Positions 730 through 10,828 of a DNA stretch of 64,000 nucleotides are shown in pieces. The stretch comes from an uncultured Enterobacterales bacterium (GTDB lineage Bacteria > Myxococcota_A > UBA796 > CAJQPC01), in NCBI GenBank assembly GCA_964604675.1, contig CAZSAT010000023.1, positions 3,228 through 67,227 on the forward strand, written 5' to 3'. Below the pieces are notes generated by a model. It did no database searches and was not told the DNA's origin. It saw only the letters and a program-made list of their open reading frames with translations. The translations under genes were made by a program, and so were the position numbers. The number at the start of each line of letters is the position of its first letter. Position 1 is the first letter of the stretch.

Positions 730-869
730 CTCGGCGCCGGCCCCAAGGGCACAGGCCGTCCCACGTCCACCGCGACGCCGGGCAGCCGTCGTAGCCCATG
801 GATGGGCCATCGAGCGCCGCGAGTCGGCCCTCACTGATAGACTTCGCAGCGCTGGTTGAGGATGCCCGC

Positions 870-2258
870 ATGAAGAAGTCCGAGAACATCCTGATCCTCG
901 GTCTGGGTGGACTCGGCCGGTACCTCGCCGGCCGCCTGTCCCACGAAGAACACCACGTCACCGTGATCGAACCCAACGCCGCCAAGATCCGGGCAGCCGA
1001 GGGGCAGCTCGACGCGCGGCTCATCTGTGGGGACGCCCTGGACTTCGACCGGTGGGCCGAGGCTGGCGCTGCAGAGATGGACTACGTCATCGCCGTCACC
1101 GACAACGACGCTGCGAACATCATGTCGGCGCTGATCGCGGAGCGCTTCGACATCGAACAGAAGATCGCCCGGGTGCGGTCGATGAAGGTCTGGGATCCCA
1201 GCGCCGTGCTGACCGCTGCCGACCTGAAGATCAACCTGGTGATCCGGCCGGAGGAGCTGGCTTCGCAGGAGATCGTGCACCTGTTGAAGACCCAGGCGGG
1301 CAACGTCCAGATCACCCTGGGCGGCGGCGACCTGCAGGTCGTTGCCACCCATGTGCACCGCACGTCTCGGTTGGCTCAGATGCGTGTGAAGGACATCTCC
1401 GACAAGCGCGACGAGTTCCCCTTCAAGGTCGTCTGCGTCGCCCGTGACATCGACACCTACATCCCCGGGGGTGACTTCACGATCCTGCCGGACGACCACG
1501 TGTTCGTGCTGGCGCACACCAGGGACATGGCGCGGCTGATGAAGCTCGCCGACGTGTCCGTGGCCCGAAGGCACGGCGTGCTCATCGTGGGCGGCGGGCT
1601 GATCGGGGCGCGGGTCGCGGAGCTGCTCGAGCCGCACTACACGGTGCGTCTGGTCGAGCGCGACGAGCATCGGGCCGAAGAACTGTGCTACCGGCTACGG
1701 CGCACCGAGGTACTGCATGGCGACGGGTCGGACTCGTCGGTGCTCCTCCAGGCGGGGCTCTTGAAGACCGACACCATCATCGCCACGACCGGCGACAACG
1801 AGGCCAACATCATGATCGGCGTGTTGGCCAAGCACCTGATCCAGACCCGGGCCGACGACGTTCAGGCCGCCATCGGGAAGACCATCGCGCTGGTCAAGCG
1901 AACGGACTACCTGGTGCTCGCGTCGGCCATGGGCGCCGACCTGGCGGTGAACCGGAAGATCCTGGCAGCCAACCACATCCTCCGGTACATCCGCCGCGGG
2001 CACGTCCTGTCTGTGGCCCACCTCCACGGCTGCGACGCAGAGCTGGTCGAGCTGCTGGCCGGCGCCGACTCGCCGATCACGCGCAGCCCCCTTCATGAGC
2101 TGACCCACCTCCGCGACCGAATCATGGTCGGCGCCCTGTACCGCGACGGCGCGTGGTCCGTGGCCGGAGGCGGCACGCAGATCCGGACTGGCGATCGGGT
2201 GGTGTGCATCTCGAGACCGGACGACCTCAGAGAGCTCCAGCGGTTGTTCCTCGCATGA
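870..2258 (+). CDS. trkA: Trk K+ uptake NAD-binding subunit
   Basis: Two RCK_N Rossmann motifs (ILGLGGLG, IVGGGLIG) alternating with RCK_C domains, directly upstream of trkH. Start chosen at ATG 870; ORF track gives 798. Confidence 0.93.
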   Translation: MKKSENILILGLGGLGRYLAGRLSHEEHHVTVIEPNAAKIRAAEGQLDARLICGDALDFDRWAEAGAAEMDYVIAVTDNDAANIMSALIAERFDIEQKIARVRSMKVWDPSAVLTAADLKINLVIRPEELASQEIVHLLKTQAGNVQITLGGGDLQVVATHVHRTSRLAQMRVKDISDKRDEFPFKVVCVARDIDTYIPGGDFTILPDDHVFVLAHTRDMARLMKLADVSVARRHGVLIVGGGLIGARVAELLEPHYTVRLVERDEHRAEELCYRLRRTEVLHGDGSDSSVLLQAGLLKTDTIIATTGDNEANIMIGVLAKHLIQTRADDVQAAIGKTIALVKRTDYLVLASAMGADLAVNRKILAANHILRYIRRGHVLSVAHLHGCDAELVELLAGADSPITRSPLHELTHLRDRIMVGALYRDGAWSVAGGGTQIRTGDRVVCISRPDDLRELQRLFLA

Positions 2259-2259
2259 G

Positions 2260-3750
2260 ATGCCCATGAGTGTGTGGCGGCATCCGTGGGTCAGGCGGGC
2301 GAGCTCGATCGCGTACGTGATGGGCGCGCTGCTGTCGGTGATCGCAGCGTCCATGCTGTTGCCCATCGTCGCCGCCACGATCTACGGCGAGGGAGATCTC
2401 GGGGCCCTCGTCACCGCGGCCGTGGCGATTGTCTCGATCGGCGGCCCGCTGTGGTGGTTCTTCCGCCGAGCGGACGACCTGACCCCACGCGATGCGGTGG
2501 TGGTCGCCGTGTTCGGGTGGGTCATCATCTCGGCGGTGTCCACGCTTCCGTTCCTCTTCTACGGAGCGATCCCATCGTTCACGGATGCCTTCTTCGAGAT
2601 GATGTCCGGGTACACGACGACCGGCTCGACCATCCTCACCGACGTCGAGGCCCTACCGAGAGGTCTGCTGCTCTGGCGCTCGGAGACCCACCTGCTCGGG
2701 GGCATGGGCTTCGTCACGCTCGCCATCCTGGTCCTTCCGCACGGCCTCGGCGGCCTGCGGCTGTTCCGAGCGGAGTCGAGCCCCGGGCAGGTCATCACGC
2801 GGGAACGGTTCCTGGCGCGGAACCGGGACGCGATCTACTGGCTGTGGGGGATCTACGTGGCGCTCAACGCCATGCAGGTGGTCTTGCTGTGCGCCGGGAG
2901 CATGTCCCTCTTCGACGCGCTGTGCCACGCCTTTGGAACGATCTCCACGTCGGGGTACTCGCCCTACAACGACAGCCTGGGCCACTTCGACAGCGCCTGG
3001 TTCGACTGGGTGACCATCGTGTTCATGGTGCTGGGTGGCGTCACCTTCACGCTGTTCTACTTCGCGCTCCAGGGCGAGTGGAGGCACCTCCGGATCAACA
3101 CGGAACTGCGCTGGTACGTCGGGTTCCTGGCCTTCTTCTGCGGTGCGGTGTCGCTGATTCTCTGGCACACGGGGACCTACGAAGAGCCGCTAGGAGCGCT
3201 GCGGTTCGGCACCTTCCACGTGGTCTCGCTCCTCACCACGACGGGATTCAGCACCGCCGACTACGAGCAGTGGCCCCAGTCGGCCCAGATGCTCCTCTAC
3301 GGGGTGTGCTTCATCGGGGCGTGTGCGGGCTCGACGGCCAGCGGCATCAAGATCGTGCACTTCGTGATCATCTTCCGGTTCATGGCGGCCGTGGTGAAGA
3401 AGCTCTTCTTCCAGCCACTCGCGGTGGTGTCGGTGCGGCTCAACCGGCAGCGCATCGACCCGATGCTGATCAACCTGGCGCTCTGCTACTTCGTCGTGAA
3501 CATCTTCATGGTGCTCGGCGGGGGCTGCGTGATGACGCTGCTCGACGACATGGACTTCACGTCCGCGATGAGCGCCGTCATCGCGACGCTGATGAACATC
3601 GGACCAGGCTTCGGCGAAGTGGGGCCGAGCAAGACCTTCGCCTTCATCTCCCCCGCGGGGAAGTGGTACCTCTCCTTCAACATGCTCGTGGGTCGGCTCG
3701 AGATGTTCTCTGCGCTGGTGCTCTTCTACCCCTCCTTCTGGCGCGCCTGA
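2260..3750 (+). CDS. trkH: Trk K+ uptake membrane subunit
   Basis: Multi-TM protein with filter motifs SGYTTTG, STSGY, TTTGF, NIGPG and C-terminal GRLE. Confidence 0.95.
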   Translation: MPMSVWRHPWVRRASSIAYVMGALLSVIAASMLLPIVAATIYGEGDLGALVTAAVAIVSIGGPLWWFFRRADDLTPRDAVVVAVFGWVIISAVSTLPFLFYGAIPSFTDAFFEMMSGYTTTGSTILTDVEALPRGLLLWRSETHLLGGMGFVTLAILVLPHGLGGLRLFRAESSPGQVITRERFLARNRDAIYWLWGIYVALNAMQVVLLCAGSMSLFDALCHAFGTISTSGYSPYNDSLGHFDSAWFDWVTIVFMVLGGVTFTLFYFALQGEWRHLRINTELRWYVGFLAFFCGAVSLILWHTGTYEEPLGALRFGTFHVVSLLTTTGFSTADYEQWPQSAQMLLYGVCFIGACAGSTASGIKIVHFVIIFRFMAAVVKKLFFQPLAVVSVRLNRQRIDPMLINLALCYFVVNIFMVLGGGCVMTLLDDMDFTSAMSAVIATLMNIGPGFGEVGPSKTFAFISPAGKWYLSFNMLVGRLEMFSALVLFYPSFWRA

Positions 3751-3751
3751 C

Positions 3752-5818
3752 TTGATCCTGTGGTTGGCCTGCAGCACCCCCGATGCGACCGACGCACTCC
3801 ACGCGCCGGAAGAGACCGCCGCGCCGGAGCCCTCGGGTGAGACGGGCGACACGGCGCTTCGCACCGATCTGACCGTCGCCGTCACGCTCGACGGCCAGCC
3901 GGTCGCCGACGTCGTCGTGATGCAAGCGGGCGCATCGAGCCACGTGACCACCGACGGCACCGGCGTCGCAGAGCTCACGCTCGACCCCGAGGTGCCCGGC
4001 GAGCGCTTCGTGGTCGCCTCGCACCCGGAAGCCCGGCAGGGCTGGGACTATGTGCCCTCGACGGGCGATCTGAGCCTGGCGCTCAGCCGCTACGACACCT
4101 CCGACAACGCCGACTACAGCTTCGATCCCCCCGGCGTCGACGGCACGCTGACGGGTTCGCCGACCACGGACTACTGCGGACATTGTCACAAGCCCTTCAT
4201 CGAGGAGTTCGTGACGTCGATGCACAACGATGCCGCCAGCGACGTGCAGGTGCAGGACCTCTACGCCGGCGTGGCCACCAGCCGCGACGAGGCCAGCTGC
4301 GAGAGCGTGGGGGGCGCCTGGCGGACGGGGCTCGAGCCTGGCACCAGGGCGGCGCTCGAGCGCTGCTACGTGGGTCACGGCGTGCTGCCCGATCTCAACG
4401 AGAGCTGTGGTGAGAGCACCCCCTGCGACGCGGTCGCCACCGCGTTTGGAGGTTGCGCCGACTGCCACGCCCCAGGCATCGACGGCGAGCTGGGGGGGCG
4501 TGACCTGCTGGAGGCCACCGGCACGTCCTTCGATCACGGCGTGCACTGCGACGTCTGCCACAAGGTCGAGTCGATCGACACCGACGGAGCACCGGGCGTG
4601 GGGGGGTGGTTGCGGCTGCTCCGGCCCTCCGAGAAGAGCCCCACCCCAGCGTTCGACTACCTCCCGCTGACCTTCTGCCCCTCGCACGACTCTCCGAACG
4701 TGCGCATGGGCTGCGTACAGCGCGACCACTTCCAGGAAGCCGGCTTCTGTGGAGGCTGCCACCAGCTCGATCAGGGCGCGCTCGTGCCGGGGGCCTCCCT
4801 CGACGAGGCTCGCTGGCCCGAGGGCACGCTCCCGGTGCACTCCACCTACGCCGAGTGGCTGGCCGGCCCCTACGCCGACGCGGCTGCGTGCCAGAGCTGC
4901 CACATGCCGCCGGCGCCCGAGCTGCAGAACTCGCTGGACCTCGGCGACTCGCTCGAGGGGGAGCCCGGCTACGTGAACGGTGTCGCCCGTGATCCCGGTA
5001 CGGTTCGACACCACTACTGGCCGGGCGCCTGGCATCCCGACAGCGCGTTGCTGGACCTCGCCGCGCAGGTGGAGGTGGAGGTGGAGCAGGGCGACGAACT
5101 GCTCGTCGCGGTCACCACCAAGAACATCGGCCCCGGGCACGCCCTGCCAACCGGCGAGCCCTTGCGACACCTCGTGCTCACGGTCTCCGCCGCGTGTGGC
5201 GGCGAGCCGCTCGAGGCGACCGGCGGCGACGTGGTGTGGGACGTCGGTGGTGGCGAGCGTCGGGCGGCCGGCGACGACTGGCAGATCTGGCCGGCCGCGG
5301 CCGTGGGCGATGTGCTCACCGTCGTGAGCGTGTCGGGTTGGCACGACTACACCGGGCACGGTCGCTTTGGCGACGGGAGCTTCAGCGAGGAGGAGCGCGG
5401 GCTGCCCGACGAGGACCTGGTGGGGTCGTCGACCATCACCTCGGTCGACGACGACGGACGCGTCGAGCTGGACGCCGAGCTGCCGGAAGGCGATGCGATC
5501 TACCGCAGCGAGGCCTGGTCGGCGCCGGCCGATGGCCAGACCAGCCTCGATCGCGCCGGCCAGCCTGGCTTCGCGTTCGCCCGCGTGCTCGTCGACGAGC
5601 AGGGCGAGCGCATGGTGCCGCACCATCGCGCCACGGACGTGGCGGTCGACAACCGCCTCTTGCCCATGCACGACTGGACGAGCGAGCACCGCTTCGAGGG
5701 CGGCTGCGACGATCCGTCGGTGGAGGCGGCGCTGCTCTACAGGAGGTGGCCATCGGCACTGGCCGAGCAGCGGGGGTGGGAGGCCACGGATCGCCTGATG
5801 GCGGTGGGGGTGAGGTGA
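3752..5818 (+). CDS. Pentaheme c-type cytochrome, putative lipoprotein (c554-like family)
   Basis: Five CxxCH motifs: CGHCH, CADCH, CDVCH, CGGCH, CQSCH. TTG start with MILWLAC N-terminus and a long C-terminal non-heme region. Confidence 0.85.
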   Translation: MILWLACSTPDATDALHAPEETAAPEPSGETGDTALRTDLTVAVTLDGQPVADVVVMQAGASSHVTTDGTGVAELTLDPEVPGERFVVASHPEARQGWDYVPSTGDLSLALSRYDTSDNADYSFDPPGVDGTLTGSPTTDYCGHCHKPFIEEFVTSMHNDAASDVQVQDLYAGVATSRDEASCESVGGAWRTGLEPGTRAALERCYVGHGVLPDLNESCGESTPCDAVATAFGGCADCHAPGIDGELGGRDLLEATGTSFDHGVHCDVCHKVESIDTDGAPGVGGWLRLLRPSEKSPTPAFDYLPLTFCPSHDSPNVRMGCVQRDHFQEAGFCGGCHQLDQGALVPGASLDEARWPEGTLPVHSTYAEWLAGPYADAAACQSCHMPPAPELQNSLDLGDSLEGEPGYVNGVARDPGTVRHHYWPGAWHPDSALLDLAAQVEVEVEQGDELLVAVTTKNIGPGHALPTGEPLRHLVLTVSAACGGEPLEATGGDVVWDVGGGERRAAGDDWQIWPAAAVGDVLTVVSVSGWHDYTGHGRFGDGSFSEEERGLPDEDLVGSSTITSVDDDGRVELDAELPEGDAIYRSEAWSAPADGQTSLDRAGQPGFAFARVLVDEQGERMVPHHRATDVAVDNRLLPMHDWTSEHRFEGGCDDPSVEAALLYRRWPSALAEQRGWEATDRLMAVGVR

Positions 5819-7170
5819 TGCCGTGGTGGTGGTGGTTCGCGTGCACGGAGCCGGACGCTCCGACCGAGTCGGTCGACACCGACGTGGTCGTCGACAGCCC
5901 CACCGTCGACTCGGACGCCGACGATCGGGCCTGGCTCGAGCAGCCGCCCGAGGCCGCCGACCTGGACGAAGACCCGGACGTCGTGCACGTCCAGCTGACC
6001 GCCGCGCCCTTCGTGCACGACATCGGCGGCGAAGCGGTCGAGGGCTACGCCTACTCCGGCAGCACACCGGGCCCCACCCTTCGAGGTGAGGTGGGCGACA
6101 CCTTGATCGTCGAGCTGCAGAACGACCTCCCGGACGCCACCACCATCCACTGGCACGGGCTCGAGGTGCCCTACGACATGGACGGCGTGACCTGGCAGCG
6201 GGACCCCGTGGCCGCTGGCGGGAGCTTCACGTACAGCTTCACCCTCACGAAGGCGGGCACCTATTGGTACCACCCCCACTTCGACTCCAACGAGCAGGTG
6301 AGCCGAGGCCTGTACGGGGTGCTGGTCGTCGAGGACCCGTCAGACCCGGCCCCGGCGCAGGAGCTGATCCTCGTGCTCGACGACTGGTTGCTGGCCGAGC
6401 TCGCCGACGACGAAGGGGTGCACGGCGACCACGGTCTGGAGGGTGTCTGGACCTCGAACGGGCAGATCTCGCCACGGTGGGAGGCGCCGGACGGGGTCAC
6501 ACGCGTGCGCATCCTCAACGCATCGAACGCTGGTTACGTGAAGCTCGCGTGGCCGTCGATGCGGGTGCTGGGCACCGAGCGCGGGATCGGTGGAGGCCTG
6601 ACCACGCCGGACTCGCTGGTGCTCGGACCCGGCGACCGAGCCGAAGCGGAGTGGCTCGGTGGGGACTTCCTCGTCGAGGATCATCCCTACTCCCTGCACG
6701 GCGGAGAGGCCTACGGCGAGGTGGCCGAGGTGCTGCTGGTCGAGGGAGCAGCGCTCGACGACGACGGCCTGGCCTGGCCCTTCCACGGCGAGGCGCCAAC
6801 TCCGGATCCAGGGCGAACCGACATCGTGTACGTCTTCTCGGGGGACGCCGGCGAGTGGTTCATCAACGGGGAGCAGTTCCCGGACGTGACCATCGAAGAG
6901 CTGATCCTCGGCGACGAGGTGGTCATCGAGGTGCGGAACCTGTCGCCGACTCGGCACCCCTTCCACCTGCACGGCCTGACCTTCGAGGTGCTCTCGAGCG
7001 CGGGCACGCCGCCCGCCTGGCGGTCGCGCCAGGACACTGTCGACGTCGGCGTGCACGAGGCCGTGCGGCTGCTCGTGACAGCGAACAACCCCGGCGACTG
7101 GATGACCCACTGCCACATCCTTCCCCACGCGGAGCAGGGCATGATGACCGTCTTGCGCGTGGCCGAGTAG
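5818..7170 (+). CDS. Multicopper oxidase, putative lipoprotein
   Basis: HWHG, WYHPH, HPFHLHG and HCHILPHAEQGM copper motifs; TGATG overlap with the upstream cytochrome; N-terminus MPWWWWFAC. Confidence 0.92.
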   Translation: MPWWWWFACTEPDAPTESVDTDVVVDSPTVDSDADDRAWLEQPPEAADLDEDPDVVHVQLTAAPFVHDIGGEAVEGYAYSGSTPGPTLRGEVGDTLIVELQNDLPDATTIHWHGLEVPYDMDGVTWQRDPVAAGGSFTYSFTLTKAGTYWYHPHFDSNEQVSRGLYGVLVVEDPSDPAPAQELILVLDDWLLAELADDEGVHGDHGLEGVWTSNGQISPRWEAPDGVTRVRILNASNAGYVKLAWPSMRVLGTERGIGGGLTTPDSLVLGPGDRAEAEWLGGDFLVEDHPYSLHGGEAYGEVAEVLLVEGAALDDDGLAWPFHGEAPTPDPGRTDIVYVFSGDAGEWFINGEQFPDVTIEELILGDEVVIEVRNLSPTRHPFHLHGLTFEVLSSAGTPPAWRSRQDTVDVGVHEAVRLLVTANNPGDWMTHCHILPHAEQGMMTVLRVAE

Positions 7171-7296
7171 CGTGCGTTCGGCCGGTAAGCGCTCCTTGAC
7201 GCGGGCCCGAGGGGGGCCCCCGTGGTACGGGCAGCACGCCCAGCGGCGCTCCTCCCCGCGCGCTTGGTTCAAGCGATCGTCTCCATCGGAGTCACC

Positions 7297-8415
7297 ATGC
7301 TGACCTTGCACCTCCTGGCGGTCCAGGCAGCCCCCGTCCGACTGGAGCTGCCGTCAGGTCCATCCGCCATGGCCCCCTCCTGGGCGGTCGACGGCGGCCG
7401 CCTCTGGCTGAGCTGGATCGAGCCGGGCGAGGAGGGTGGCCGGCTGCGCCTTGCGAGCTTCGATGGTCGCGGTTTCGGCGAGCCCGTGACGGTGGTCGAT
7501 CGGCAGGATCTGCTGACGAACTGGGCCGACTTCCCCAGCTTTGCCCGGGGAGGCGACGGACAACTCTACGGCTGGTATCCGAAGCTGATCGACCCCGCGA
7601 CGTACGCCTACGACGCGGTCCTGCTTCGCTCGCCCGACGGCCTGTCGTGGACGGAACTCGGGCCCCTCCATGCCGATGGCGTCCCGGCAGAGCACGGCTT
7701 CGTCTCGCTCGTGGCAGCCCCCGAGGGCGTGCGCGCCTGGTGGCTCGACGGCCGCGAGGTCTCCGGCGGCGGTGCCACGGCGCTGCGGACCAGGCTCGGC
7801 AACGGCCCCGAGGAGGTTGCCGATCCGAGGGTCTGCGACTGCTGCGGAACGGCAGCCGTGGAAGGTCTGGTGTTGTACCGGGACCGTTCCGACGAGGAGA
7901 TCCGCGACGTCGCCTGGGCCGCGCCCGGCGACGGTGGATGGTCGGGGGCCCCGCTCGCAGGGCAGGGTTGGACCATCGCCGGCTGTCCGGTGAACGGCCC
8001 CGCGCTGGCCGAAGGGCCCTCCGGCTACGCCGCAGCCTGGTACACGCAAGCCGAGGCCCCGACGGTGTGGAGCGCCATCGGCCCTGACCCAGCCACGTGG
8101 ACTCCGGTGCTGGTCGACTCGGAGACCAGAGGACGACGCCCATTGGGCCGCGTCGATGTCGCCTGGAAGGGCGATCGAGCAGTCGTCGCGTGGCTCCGCG
8201 AAGAGGGTGATCAGGCGGTGGTCCTCGTTCGGACCCTGTCGACCGCCACTGGACTCGGCCCCGAAGTGGAGGTGGGGCGCACGGCCGCCAACCGTTCCGC
8301 TGGGTTTCCTCGACTGGCCCTGCTGGGAGAGCATGTGTTCCTGGCGTGGACGGACGTGCAAGGCGACGAGGTGTCGCTGGCGCTCGCCCGTCTGGAACTC
8401 GACGAGCTCGACTGA
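7297..8415 (+). CDS. Secreted hypothetical protein, BNR/beta-propeller-like, with CxCC and GCP motifs
   Basis: Signal-like N-terminus, motifs NWADFP, VCDCCGT and WTIAGCPVNGP, repeated W-containing beta-strands. Fold and metal binding are inferred. Confidence 0.7.
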   Translation: MLTLHLLAVQAAPVRLELPSGPSAMAPSWAVDGGRLWLSWIEPGEEGGRLRLASFDGRGFGEPVTVVDRQDLLTNWADFPSFARGGDGQLYGWYPKLIDPATYAYDAVLLRSPDGLSWTELGPLHADGVPAEHGFVSLVAAPEGVRAWWLDGREVSGGGATALRTRLGNGPEEVADPRVCDCCGTAAVEGLVLYRDRSDEEIRDVAWAAPGDGGWSGAPLAGQGWTIAGCPVNGPALAEGPSGYAAAWYTQAEAPTVWSAIGPDPATWTPVLVDSETRGRRPLGRVDVAWKGDRAVVAWLREEGDQAVVLVRTLSTATGLGPEVEVGRTAANRSAGFPRLALLGEHVFLAWTDVQGDEVSLALARLELDELD

Positions 8416-8427
8416 GCGGAGGACGAC

Positions 8428-8931
8428 ATGAAGAAGGACCCCTCACGCCGCATGACGTGTGCGCGGATGGCTGCGCTGGTCACCCTCACCGGGTGCGGGC
8501 GGCGTCGGCGCGACGAGACCCCCGAGCAGGACGAGGACGACACGGGCTTCGGCGCCCCCATCACCGAGGGGGACACGGGCGGTCGCGCCGACACGGGAGG
8601 GGCTTCGACCGAGATCTTCTTCTCCTACGCCGACCACCCGGGTCTCAGCGAGCCGGACGGCTGGGCACTCGGGCACAACTCCACGGGGCTCGAGGTGCTG
8701 CTCCACAACGACCCTGACCAGGGGCTCTTCGCGAACTTTGGACTCTGCACGCACGAGTGGTGCCCCACCGAGTTCGATGCGAAGCTTCTGGAGCATGTGT
8801 GCGAGTGCCACGGTTCGCGCTTCGATCTGCACGGCGACGTGGTCATCGGCCCTGCGGCGACGCCGCTCACGCGGCCGGAGATCCGGGTCACGAAGGACGG
8901 CGTGTACGTCGAGCTCGGTTCCTGGGCCTGA
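8428..8931 (+). CDS. Stand-alone Rieske [2Fe-2S] protein, putative Tat lipoprotein
   Basis: Box 1 CTHEWC and box 2 CECHGSRF; SRR near the N-terminus and LTGC lipobox. Confidence 0.85.
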   Translation: MKKDPSRRMTCARMAALVTLTGCGRRRRDETPEQDEDDTGFGAPITEGDTGGRADTGGASTEIFFSYADHPGLSEPDGWALGHNSTGLEVLLHNDPDQGLFANFGLCTHEWCPTEFDAKLLEHVCECHGSRFDLHGDVVIGPAATPLTRPEIRVTKDGVYVELGSWA

Positions 8932-9591: not shown

Positions 9592-10605
9592 TCAGAGGCA
9601 GTCGAGGTAGGCCGCGATGAAGTCGGCGTGGTCCTGCAAGGTCTCGTCGTGCGCGTCGGCGAACTTGTTGCCGCCGCCGTGGTAGATGCCCGTGCTCTCG
9701 CCGAGCACGGTCGAGGCGCTGACGCCCTCGGCGAGGGGCTTGGTGAGGAAGCTCGATGCGGTGGGGTTCGTGGTGTCGATGCCCCCCATGCCGATGACGT
9801 TGTACATCGTCAGCAGGCTCGATTCGGCCTCGTCCCCCGTCCAGGCATAGAAGGGGGTGCCCGGGTACTTCTCAGCCAGGTCTCCGCCTTCGTAGTGGCA
9901 CGACCAGCAGCGGCCGTGCCAGGCCCAGACCTTCTGCTCGAACAGCGCGGCCAGCGCGTCTTCGCTGCAGCCACCGACCGGTGACTCGACGTCCGGCATC
10001 TCGTCGTCGTCGCCGCCCGCCTCACAGGCGTCGTCGATGTCGCCACAGACCACGTCGTGGCACTCCGCCGACCAGGTGATCCACTCATGGAATCCCTCAT
10101 ACTCTGCCTCGATGACGTCCTCGGTGATGAGATCGCTGTCCGGTTCGGCCTGCAGGATCTGGGCGAGCACGGCACTGGCCTCGGGGTCATCGAGGTCGAC
10201 CACGCCCTGCTCGATCATGCAGGCCATGGACTCGCAGGGGGTGTCCTGCACATAGAGCGACAGGTCCACGCCGCTGACGTGGCATTGGTTGCAGGTGGAG
10301 GGGTGCTCGTCGGTGAGCAGGGGCTCGACGTAGCGCTCGTAGAGCTCGAGCTGCCCGTCGGCGGTGCACTCGGCATAGAGCGCGGCGTCGTCGCTGGCGC
10401 TGTCGCCCGTGTCCCCGACAGGACCGCCCGTGTCGCTCACGGCCGTCTCGCAGTCCGGGCTCCCAGCGCAGCCCTCGTCGTCGCAGTCGAAGTCCCCGTC
10501 GCGGTCGTTGTCGGCGGCGTCGGCGCACTCGCCAGCGGCGTCGCCCTCGTAGTCGGATGCGATCGGCGTGGGAGAGCAGGCGAGAAGCAGGCAGAGCATC
10601 CGCAT
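9592..10605 (-). CDS. Diheme c-type cytochrome lipoprotein
   Basis: CNQCH and CWSCH motifs, LLAC lipobox and an Asp/Cys-rich ECADAADNDRDGDFDCDDEGC segment. Confidence 0.8.
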   Translation of the reverse strand: MRMLCLLLACSPTPIASDYEGDAAGECADAADNDRDGDFDCDDEGCAGSPDCETAVSDTGGPVGDTGDSASDDAALYAECTADGQLELYERYVEPLLTDEHPSTCNQCHVSGVDLSLYVQDTPCESMACMIEQGVVDLDDPEASAVLAQILQAEPDSDLITEDVIEAEYEGFHEWITWSAECHDVVCGDIDDACEAGGDDDEMPDVESPVGGCSEDALAALFEQKVWAWHGRCWSCHYEGGDLAEKYPGTPFYAWTGDEAESSLLTMYNVIGMGGIDTTNPTASSFLTKPLAEGVSASTVLGESTGIYHGGGNKFADAHDETLQDHADFIAAYLDCL

Positions 10606-10654
10606 AGCCTACCTTCTCCTGCGCGATGCCGTCCCATCGACGAGCGGCGCAAGG

Positions 10655-10729
10655 TGACCCCAACGGGATTCGAACCCGTGTTGCCGGGATGAAAACCCGG
10701 TGTCCTGGACCTGACTAGACGATGGGGTC
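10655..10729 (-). tRNA. tRNA-Glu (TTC)
   Basis: Acceptor stem GACCCCA/TGGGGTC, anticodon arm CCGGG-TTTTCAT-CCCGG, T-loop GTTCGAATC; CCA not encoded. Confidence 0.96.
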
Positions 10730-10755
10730 TGAAGGAGCGCGCCGAGGGGACGGGG

Positions 10756-10828
10756 TGGGCCGCACAGGGCTCGAACCTGTGACCCTCGGCTTAAAAGGCC
10801 GGTGCTCTGCCAACTGAGCTAGCGGCCC
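10756..10828 (-). tRNA. tRNA-Lys (TTT)
   Basis: Acceptor stem GGGCCGC/GCGGCCC, D-arm GCTC/GAGC, anticodon loop CTTTTAA, GTTCGA T-loop; CCA not encoded. Confidence 0.96.

Follow-up and report, generated by a model that had tools for sequence, protein, structure and literature searches.

We describe here two adjacent genes in the genome of an uncultured myxobacterium that encode a pentahaem c-type cytochrome and a three-domain multicopper oxidase (MCO), both putative lipoproteins. The genes lie in a 64,000-nucleotide stretch of contig CAZSAT010000023.1 (the window, G+C ~69%), part of a 7.49 Mb assembly of 238 contigs (G000) in which 4821 coding-like open reading frames (ORFs) were counted. Comparison across the Myxococcota establishes the pair as a real, conserved and uncharacterised two-component redox module, sometimes made as a single chain, and thus as a new variation on the theme of a haem domain feeding a type-1 (T1) copper enzyme. 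As to function, we favour with moderate confidence the view that the two genes specify a dedicated electron-transfer unit at the cell envelope, leading from haem to T1 copper to O2. The original prediction for this locus had noted five CxxCH motifs in the first gene, a TGATG overlap between the genes, a complete MCO copper set with a Met as axial T1 ligand, and N-termini ending in AC (MILWLAC and MPWWWWFAC), with no RR motif in the MCO. All of these features were confirmed (Table 1).

The two reading frames share one nucleotide, the final A of the cytochrome TGA codon being the first A of the MCO ATG codon. An in-frame GTG just upstream would instead create the 4-nt GTGA overlap that is typical of most relatives. 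Close linkage is the rule: in three initial genomes the MCO gene overlaps the cytochrome gene and the flanks are unrelated, and of 65 genome loci whose sequence extends 1.5 kb or more downstream of the cytochrome, 53 have an MCO gene immediately 3'. A lipobox-bearing MCO start was placeable at 53 loci, and at 50 of these it overlaps the cytochrome stop, by 4 nt in 44 cases (ATGA or GTGA) and by 1 nt in six (TGATG).

The same association was observed in an evenly sampled set of 401 Myxococcota genomes, 77 of which carry the cytochrome. At 45% identity or more, 44 MCO matches were retrieved: 39 lie directly behind the cytochrome on the same strand and five begin at a contig edge, so that every member with visible context (39/39) is paired. 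No MCO below 45% identity in these genomes adjoins a cytochrome. About one tenth of the sampled Myxococcota thus possess the pair. Moreover, 56 paired MCOs form a single clade in the phylogenetic tree (SH-aLRT 100), apart from 22 unpaired Myxococcota MCOs. The expectations that the two genes co-occur across genomes and that the MCO stands apart from ordinary stand-alone MCOs were therefore both borne out, this clade being found only behind this cytochrome. Clustering of the ORFs of 52 paired loci revealed no third conserved gene family, be it a porin, a quinol dehydrogenase or a chaperone, and full-text literature searches returned no description of an MCO-pentahaem pair, of Enhygromyxa MCOs or of MCO-cytochrome fusions.

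Natural fusions of the two proteins provide further evidence. In three proteins of 1139-1150 aa (P0244, P0246 and P0260), Cu-oxidase_3 and Cu-oxidase_2 domains follow the cytochrome within one chain. At the junction, the usual cytochrome C-terminus is followed by a linker of ~20 residues and then by the first MCO strand; a second lipobox or leader and an acidic tether are absent. Single fusion ORFs were confirmed on DNA in five records: L111, L112 (same contig as G339:C253), L039 (complete chromosome OW818691.1), L061 and G111. We considered whether the fusions could be frameshift or gene-call artefacts and rejected this explanation, since neither the leader nor the tether of the MCO is present at the junctions, the linkers differ and five DNA records agree. 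In an AlphaFold2 (AF2) model of P0244 both modules are confidently predicted (pLDDT 85.3, pTM 0.66), with disorder confined to residues 723-729 between them. Because the three representatives occupy separate, well-supported positions in the cytochrome tree, the fusion arose at least three times independently. All together, exclusive pairing, coupled translation, shared anchoring and repeated fusion strongly support the conclusion that the two proteins work as one physical unit. The dedicated cytochrome-to-MCO pair at the envelope that had been predicted thus finds support in the co-occurrence of the genes, in the exclusive MCO clade and in natural fusions in at least three lineages.

The cytochrome belongs to a large family without annotation. 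No Pfam or NCBIfam model attains its cut-off on the window protein; more than 900 homologues of ~690 aa and ~50% identity are all named 'hypothetical', and they come almost exclusively from Myxococcota, including Enhygromyxa salina and a Nannocystaceae isolate. Among 1.84 billion cluster representatives, a profile search yielded 301 matches at E <= 1e-30. The AF2 model (pLDDT 82) predicts, in order, a disordered tether, a transthyretin-like beta-sandwich whose Foldseek matches are the SusC NTE and carboxypeptidase transthyretin-like domains, a helical haem domain (residues 141-384) and a large region of beta structure. ORFs with four or more CxxCH motifs are rare in the genome (13 of 4821), and both the haem motifs and the MCO copper ligands are conserved in homologues; the signatures of the two proteins are therefore not due to chance. 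Five His residues outside the motifs (H144, H158, H421, H463 and H646) are also invariant in the family alignment (A1), and six further Cys outside the motifs are conserved. The former would suffice for five bis-His haems, and the latter, being even in number, would fit three disulfides.

The best structural match to the cytochrome was the pentahaem low-potential cytochrome c552 of Thermochromatium tepidum (PDB 5ze8; Foldseek E 2.8e-11, target-normalised TM 0.64). The A1 profile also aligns to 5ze8 (E 3.5e-10, 17% identity), collinearly across haem motifs 1, 2/3 and 5, H158, H421 and the H463 motif (HAxPTGxPxR). On this profile alignment and predicted fold, the cytochrome is a remote, unannotated member of the PHC pentahaem fold: a helical cap containing five CxxCH motifs precedes an Ig-like beta-sandwich with the H-A-x-P-T-G motif, and homology extends to the sequence level. 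The PHC family comprises c552, Geobacter ExtKL/MccSep, GSU2801, the sPHC and lPHC of cable bacteria, and PtdA (PMC11976967; bioRxiv 10.1101/2025.11.18.688581; bioRxiv 10.1101/2023.11.21.568154). The window cytochrome differs from it by its lipoprotein anchor, its N-terminal transthyretin-like domain, an enlarged C-terminal beta region, the probable lack of a Sec/Cys active site and its MCO partner. G000 encodes a second five-haem protein (C7:40200-41660, + strand, 486 aa), which begins with a Pro-Ser repeat region and is very distantly related to the cytochrome, matching it at E 4e-4 across residues 364-478. Among the homologues, P0327 (1532 aa) joins the cytochrome module to non-MCO regions (Temptin_C and CarboxypepD_reg), and other members of this long non-MCO set (P0267, P0274 and P0276) measure 1132-1342 aa, some with unannotated C-terminal extensions.

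Judged by its fold and ligands, the MCO is an ordinary three-domain enzyme. Cu-oxidase_3 (PF07732) matches at 3.5e-34 (117.8 bits, cut-off 21) and Cu-oxidase_2 (PF07731) at 2.7e-33 (115.1 bits, cut-off 20.4). All 12 copper ligands are present in the motifs HxH, HxH, HxxHxH and HCHxxxHxxxxM, axial M442 included, and are 96-100% conserved in the paired clade. The closest solved relatives are the laccases 9cpm and 2xu9 (Thermus), at E ~1e-50 to 1e-48 over residues 55-448; CueO matches at ~1e-29. In contrast, the protein falls well under the cut-offs of the functional NCBIfam models: CueO (NF008205, 141.4 bits against an equivalog cut-off of 525), the copper-resistance protein CopA/PcoA (TIGR01480, 150.6 against 478.95) and copper nitrite reductase (TIGR02376, 33 against 296.3). 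The window MCO thus shares with 2xu9 and CueO-type enzymes the three-cupredoxin fold, the copper motifs and the axial T1 Met, but it has a lipoprotein leader where these have a Tat leader (no RR motif was found), it lacks the Met-rich hairpin that covers T1 in 2xu9, and its clade always follows a cytochrome gene. Absence of this Met-rich lid was considered as a marker of the clade and rejected, because most unpaired Myxococcota MCOs lack it too. Seven residues (H202, W211, D273, D330, P331, T358 and E371; window positions 6421-6930) are kept at 90% or more in the paired clade and differ in unpaired MCOs; they are candidate docking or relay residues.

Lipid anchoring of both proteins had been predicted from their N-termini. 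At the level of the families this holds, because the lipobox Cys (W-L-A-C in the cytochrome, W-F-A-C in the MCO) is kept in nearly all cytochrome homologues and MCO partners. The individual leaders, however, are far shorter than canonical ones: a lipoprotein signal would have a basic n-region and, behind a sufficiently long hydrophobic core, its Cys at about residues 15-35, whereas here the Cys stands at positions 7 and 9 with no K or R before it. Among the homologues of both proteins, some leaders are canonical and others equally short. A longer N-terminus for the cytochrome was rejected; the 52 open codons upstream contain no ATG, GTG or TTG and no hydrophobic signal-like stretch, so the short leader stands. 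A start Met followed by 4-9 uncharged residues and [AGS]-C is in fact found in 343 of the 4821 coding-like ORFs of this genome (consensus L-L-A-C, Cys at 7-12) as opposed to 0.4% of internal Met positions, and in 179 of the 343 the frame is not extendable upstream. In G000, leaders of this short type also outnumber classic K/R-bearing lipobox leaders (168).

These features suggest how the pair may work. Both proteins would be exported and anchored by the lipid on their N-terminal Cys, held by flexible tethers on the same membrane face, and translational coupling would supply them in a fixed ratio. The cytochrome, as a PHC-fold wire of five bis-His haems, would collect electrons from donors such as periplasmic carriers, Fe(II)/Mn(II) or other extracellular reductants, and pass them to the T1 copper of its dedicated MCO, whose trinuclear copper centre would reduce O2 to water. 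In MCOs, electrons enter at T1 and O2 is reduced at the trinuclear centre; given this chemistry, the conservation of all ligands and the low potential of the nearest characterised cytochrome relative, the path from haem to T1 copper to O2 would be a downhill route. The net product would be a cytochrome c:O2 oxidoreductase built on an MCO, in the periplasm or at the outer membrane. Docking of the unfused proteins, the direction of electron flow, the physiological substrate (metal, O2 or N-oxide) and the location of the pair are what we infer from this scheme.

Several observations weigh against this interpretation. MCOs normally need no protein donor, and no gene for an electron donor is conserved with the pair in the 52 paired loci. 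The genome of the window encodes two haem-copper oxidases, so the pair is not its main oxidase and would be an auxiliary extracytoplasmic one. In the phylum sample, an adjacent MCO is missing from about half of the cytochrome matches. Such unpaired copies are dispersed over the tree, and one genome can hold both kinds, which argues that the cytochrome also works without an MCO. Export through leaders of 6-8 residues is putative, as read from the N-terminal sequences. Finally, some PHC relatives are catalysts and not wires, for example the polysulfide reductase MccSep (bioRxiv 10.1101/2025.11.18.688581).

The concept of a haem domain joined to a copper enzyme has precedents, and one of the closest is the cytochrome c-tethered NirK, a three-domain protein of Ralstonia pickettii and Pseudoalteromonas haloplanktis. 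There too a cupredoxin enzyme is combined with a c-type haem domain, whose haem feeds T1, in fused as well as separate-partner forms. NirK, however, has one haem C-terminal to a two-domain trimer that reduces nitrite, whereas here a five-haem PHC protein is N-terminal to, or encoded just before, a three-domain O2-reducing MCO. In Nitrosomonas europaea, the ncgABC-nirK operon, linked to nitrite tolerance, combines a blue copper oxidase with c-type cytochromes; this oxidase has two domains, the cytochromes are mono- and dihaem, and the families are unrelated to those of the window pair. MCO genes are also clustered with c-type cytochrome genes in mofA-mofB-mofC of Leptothrix and in OmpB with GSU1397 of Geobacter, where envelope metal redox has been proposed (PMC5566968). 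As described, the MCOs there are large and of the OmpB/MofA type, the MofC-type cytochrome contains a periplasmic binding domain, a chaperone gene is also present, and fusions are not reported (PMC5566968). Another close functional precedent comes from cable bacteria, where an lPHC is fused to a truncated haemoglobin and proposed to act as a periplasmic terminal oxidase (PMC11976967; bioRxiv 10.64898/2026.01.20.700514): again a PHC cytochrome is joined to an O2-reducing partner. None of the systems compared joins a PHC pentahaem protein to a three-domain MCO.

A broader proposal can be put forward more tentatively. The Myxococcota may possess an unrecognised class of extracytoplasmic terminal oxidase, in which a lipid-anchored, sometimes single-chain multihaem cytochrome-MCO, without a haem-copper centre, supplies O2 with electrons drawn from donors in the envelope or outside the cell. 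It would be the copper counterpart of the PHC-truncated-haemoglobin oxidase of cable bacteria, its cytochrome module being re-used with other partners, e.g. FtrD-like lipoproteins. MCOs are usually viewed as enzymes that act alone, with small substrates as their source of electrons. That one clade always lies behind a five-haem cytochrome, and has repeatedly been fused to it, implies a dedicated protein donor. If electrons do run from haem to T1 copper to O2, this would be a novel design for an oxygen reductase located outside the cytoplasmic membrane, which could serve electron disposal, O2 scavenging or the oxidation of extracellular reductants. The pairing also provides a first functional context for a large unannotated cytochrome family, and the natural fusions offer a ready single-chain system for multihaem-to-copper electron transfer and bio-electrocatalysis. 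Because the pair is present in cultured Enhygromyxa salina (DSM 15201; NZ_JMCC02000027.1, ~29.7-33.2 kb), it is directly testable.

An alternative role is metal oxidation. The MCO would then be an Fe(II)/Mn(II) oxidase like Fet3p, MofA or MnxG, and the cytochrome an accessory that feeds electrons from metals or minerals to T1, or buffers them, for the purpose of metal acquisition, detoxification or mineral formation and not of O2 reduction in itself. One hint comes from a cytochrome clade without an MCO (L029:8213-9592, L049:8123-9488, L033:2056-3432 and L054:7980-9290), in which an FtrD-like (PF10080) lipoprotein is found instead, together with a second lipoprotein of ~225 aa with a CSGC motif after the cytochrome. 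PF10080 is associated with Ftr1/P19 iron-uptake clusters. Since these two lipoproteins occupy the place of the MCO, the clade suggests that the cytochrome module has alternative, possibly iron-related partners. The lack of a Met-rich Cu(I) lid in the MCO would also fit a metal oxidase, and for mofA-mofB-mofC and for OmpB with GSU1397 a link between MCO and cytochrome c has already been proposed for metal redox (PMC5566968). However, the 52 paired loci showed no recurrent neighbouring gene for an iron or manganese transporter, a porin or a siderophore, no metal-binding signature was identified, and the FtrD-like partner was not found in the window's genome. We thus consider metal oxidation unlikely as the purpose of the pair, bearing in mind that its electron path is the same as that of the haem-to-copper-to-O2 unit, so that the two readings overlap.

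A copper-homeostasis module, with the MCO as a cuprous oxidase of the CueO/CuoA-C type and the cytochrome supporting it, for instance by cupric reduction for copper loading or by acting as an electron sink, appears quite improbable. In its favour, the best NCBIfam matches of the MCO are CopA and CueO, and copper genes are found at a few loci: a CopA-type Cu-ATPase directly upstream in L017 (3869-5989) and nearby in L001 (829-3246) and L006, and, upstream of the fusion gene of L111, a lipoprotein with two YHS/TRASH-like copper-binding repeats (L111:491-1081). But both matches are far under cut-off, the MCO has neither a Tat leader nor a Met-rich insert, copper genes lie near only ~6 of ~80 loci, sporadically, and the neighbourhood of the pair holds no conserved gene for CueR, Cus or a copper chaperone. 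The links to metals, whether through the FtrD-like clade or through the Cu-ATPase and YHS genes near a few loci, are thus not general.

It is also very improbable that the cytochrome is itself the enzyme, oxidising a small substrate at a catalytic haem like that of MccSep/ExtKL or NrfA-type proteins, and that the MCO does no more than re-oxidise it. The cytochrome does occur in stand-alone copies, its PHC relatives include the polysulfide reductase MccSep (bioRxiv 10.1101/2025.11.18.688581), and the PHCs of cable bacteria have been classed as potentially catalytic (PMC11976967). Yet the cytochrome matches no NCBIfam family, ExtKL included, at E up to 0.1, its five invariant non-motif His match five bis-His haems, and its six extra conserved Cys, an even set probably engaged in three disulfides, would leave no lone Cys or Sec for haem ligation. 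Last, that the genes are operon neighbours with no functional link can practically be dismissed: 4-nt overlaps are common in high-GC operons and the pair abuts trkA-trkH in the window, but the MCO clade pairs exclusively with the cytochrome in varying flanks, and independent gene fusions already contradict this idea.

Table 1. Positions of the cytochrome-MCO pair, its predicted domains and motifs, and the genes upstream of it in the window.
Feature	Position	Strand	Remarks
trkA	798-2258	+	Upstream of trkH
trkH	2260-3750	+	Stop 1 nt before cytochrome start
Pentahaem c-type cytochrome gene, putative lipoprotein	3752-5818	+	688 aa, TTG start, TGA stop
Cytochrome leader MILWLA and lipobox Cys7 (putative)	3752-3772	+	Uncharged; TGC 3770-3772; Cys conserved in homologues
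Disordered acidic, Pro-rich tether	3773-3862	+	Residues ~8-37; pLDDT <50 for 1-35; variable low-complexity columns in A1
N-terminal beta-sandwich, transthyretin/CarboxypepD_reg-like	3863-4084	+	Residues 38-111; AF2 strands E38-E111, pLDDT >90
Haem motif 1, CGHCH	4175-4189	+	Residues 142-146; invariant in A1
Haem motif 2, CADCH	4454-4468	+	Residues 235-239; invariant in A1
Haem motif 3, CDVCH	4547-4561	+	Residues 266-270; invariant in A1
Haem motif 4, CGGCH	4748-4762	+	Residues 333-337; invariant in A1
Haem motif 5, CQSCH, then M385	4889-4903	+	Residues 380-384; invariant in A1
C-terminal beta-rich region	5012-5815	+	Residues 421-688; c552-type Ig-like domain plus extra beta structure (AF2)
GPGHALPTGEPLR motif in C-terminal region	5129-5167	+	Residues 460-472; HAxPTGxPxR aligns to 5ze8
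Stop/start overlap GTGATG	5815-5820	+	Cytochrome TGA 5816-5818; MCO ATG 5818 or GTG 5815
Three-domain MCO gene, putative lipoprotein	5818-7170	+	450 aa, ATG start; alternative GTG 5815
MCO leader MPWWWWFA and lipobox Cys9 (putative)	5818-5844	+	TGC 5842-5844; acidic tether of ~45 residues after
Copper motif HWH	6148-6156	+	H111, H113
Copper motif HPH	6271-6279	+	H152, H154
Copper motif HPFHLH	6955-6972	+	H380 (T1 ligand), H383, H385
Copper motif HCHILPHAEQGM	7108-7143	+	H431, C432 (T1), H433, H437 (T1), M442 (axial)

The gaps between trkA and trkH and between trkH and the cytochrome gene are 1 nt each, all on the + strand; given these gaps, the pair may share a transcript with trkA-trkH and thus be co-transcribed with a K+ uptake system. 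Searches with the window's trkA and trkH found this linkage at no other locus, and a scan for promoters and terminators gave no signal exceeding shuffled expectation. Downstream of the pair follow a gene for a 397-aa protein with no family match (7222-8415, +), a stand-alone Rieske lipoprotein (8428-8931, +; PF00355, 7.5e-7) and, on the opposite strand, a dihaem cytochrome lipoprotein with an ultra-short leader (9592-10605, -). None of these three is kept beside the pair in relatives, a homologue of the 397-aa protein lying nearby only in L025. The co-directional gene block that contains the pair ends at tRNA-Glu(TTC) (10653-10729, -) and tRNA-Lys(TTT) (10754-10828, -).

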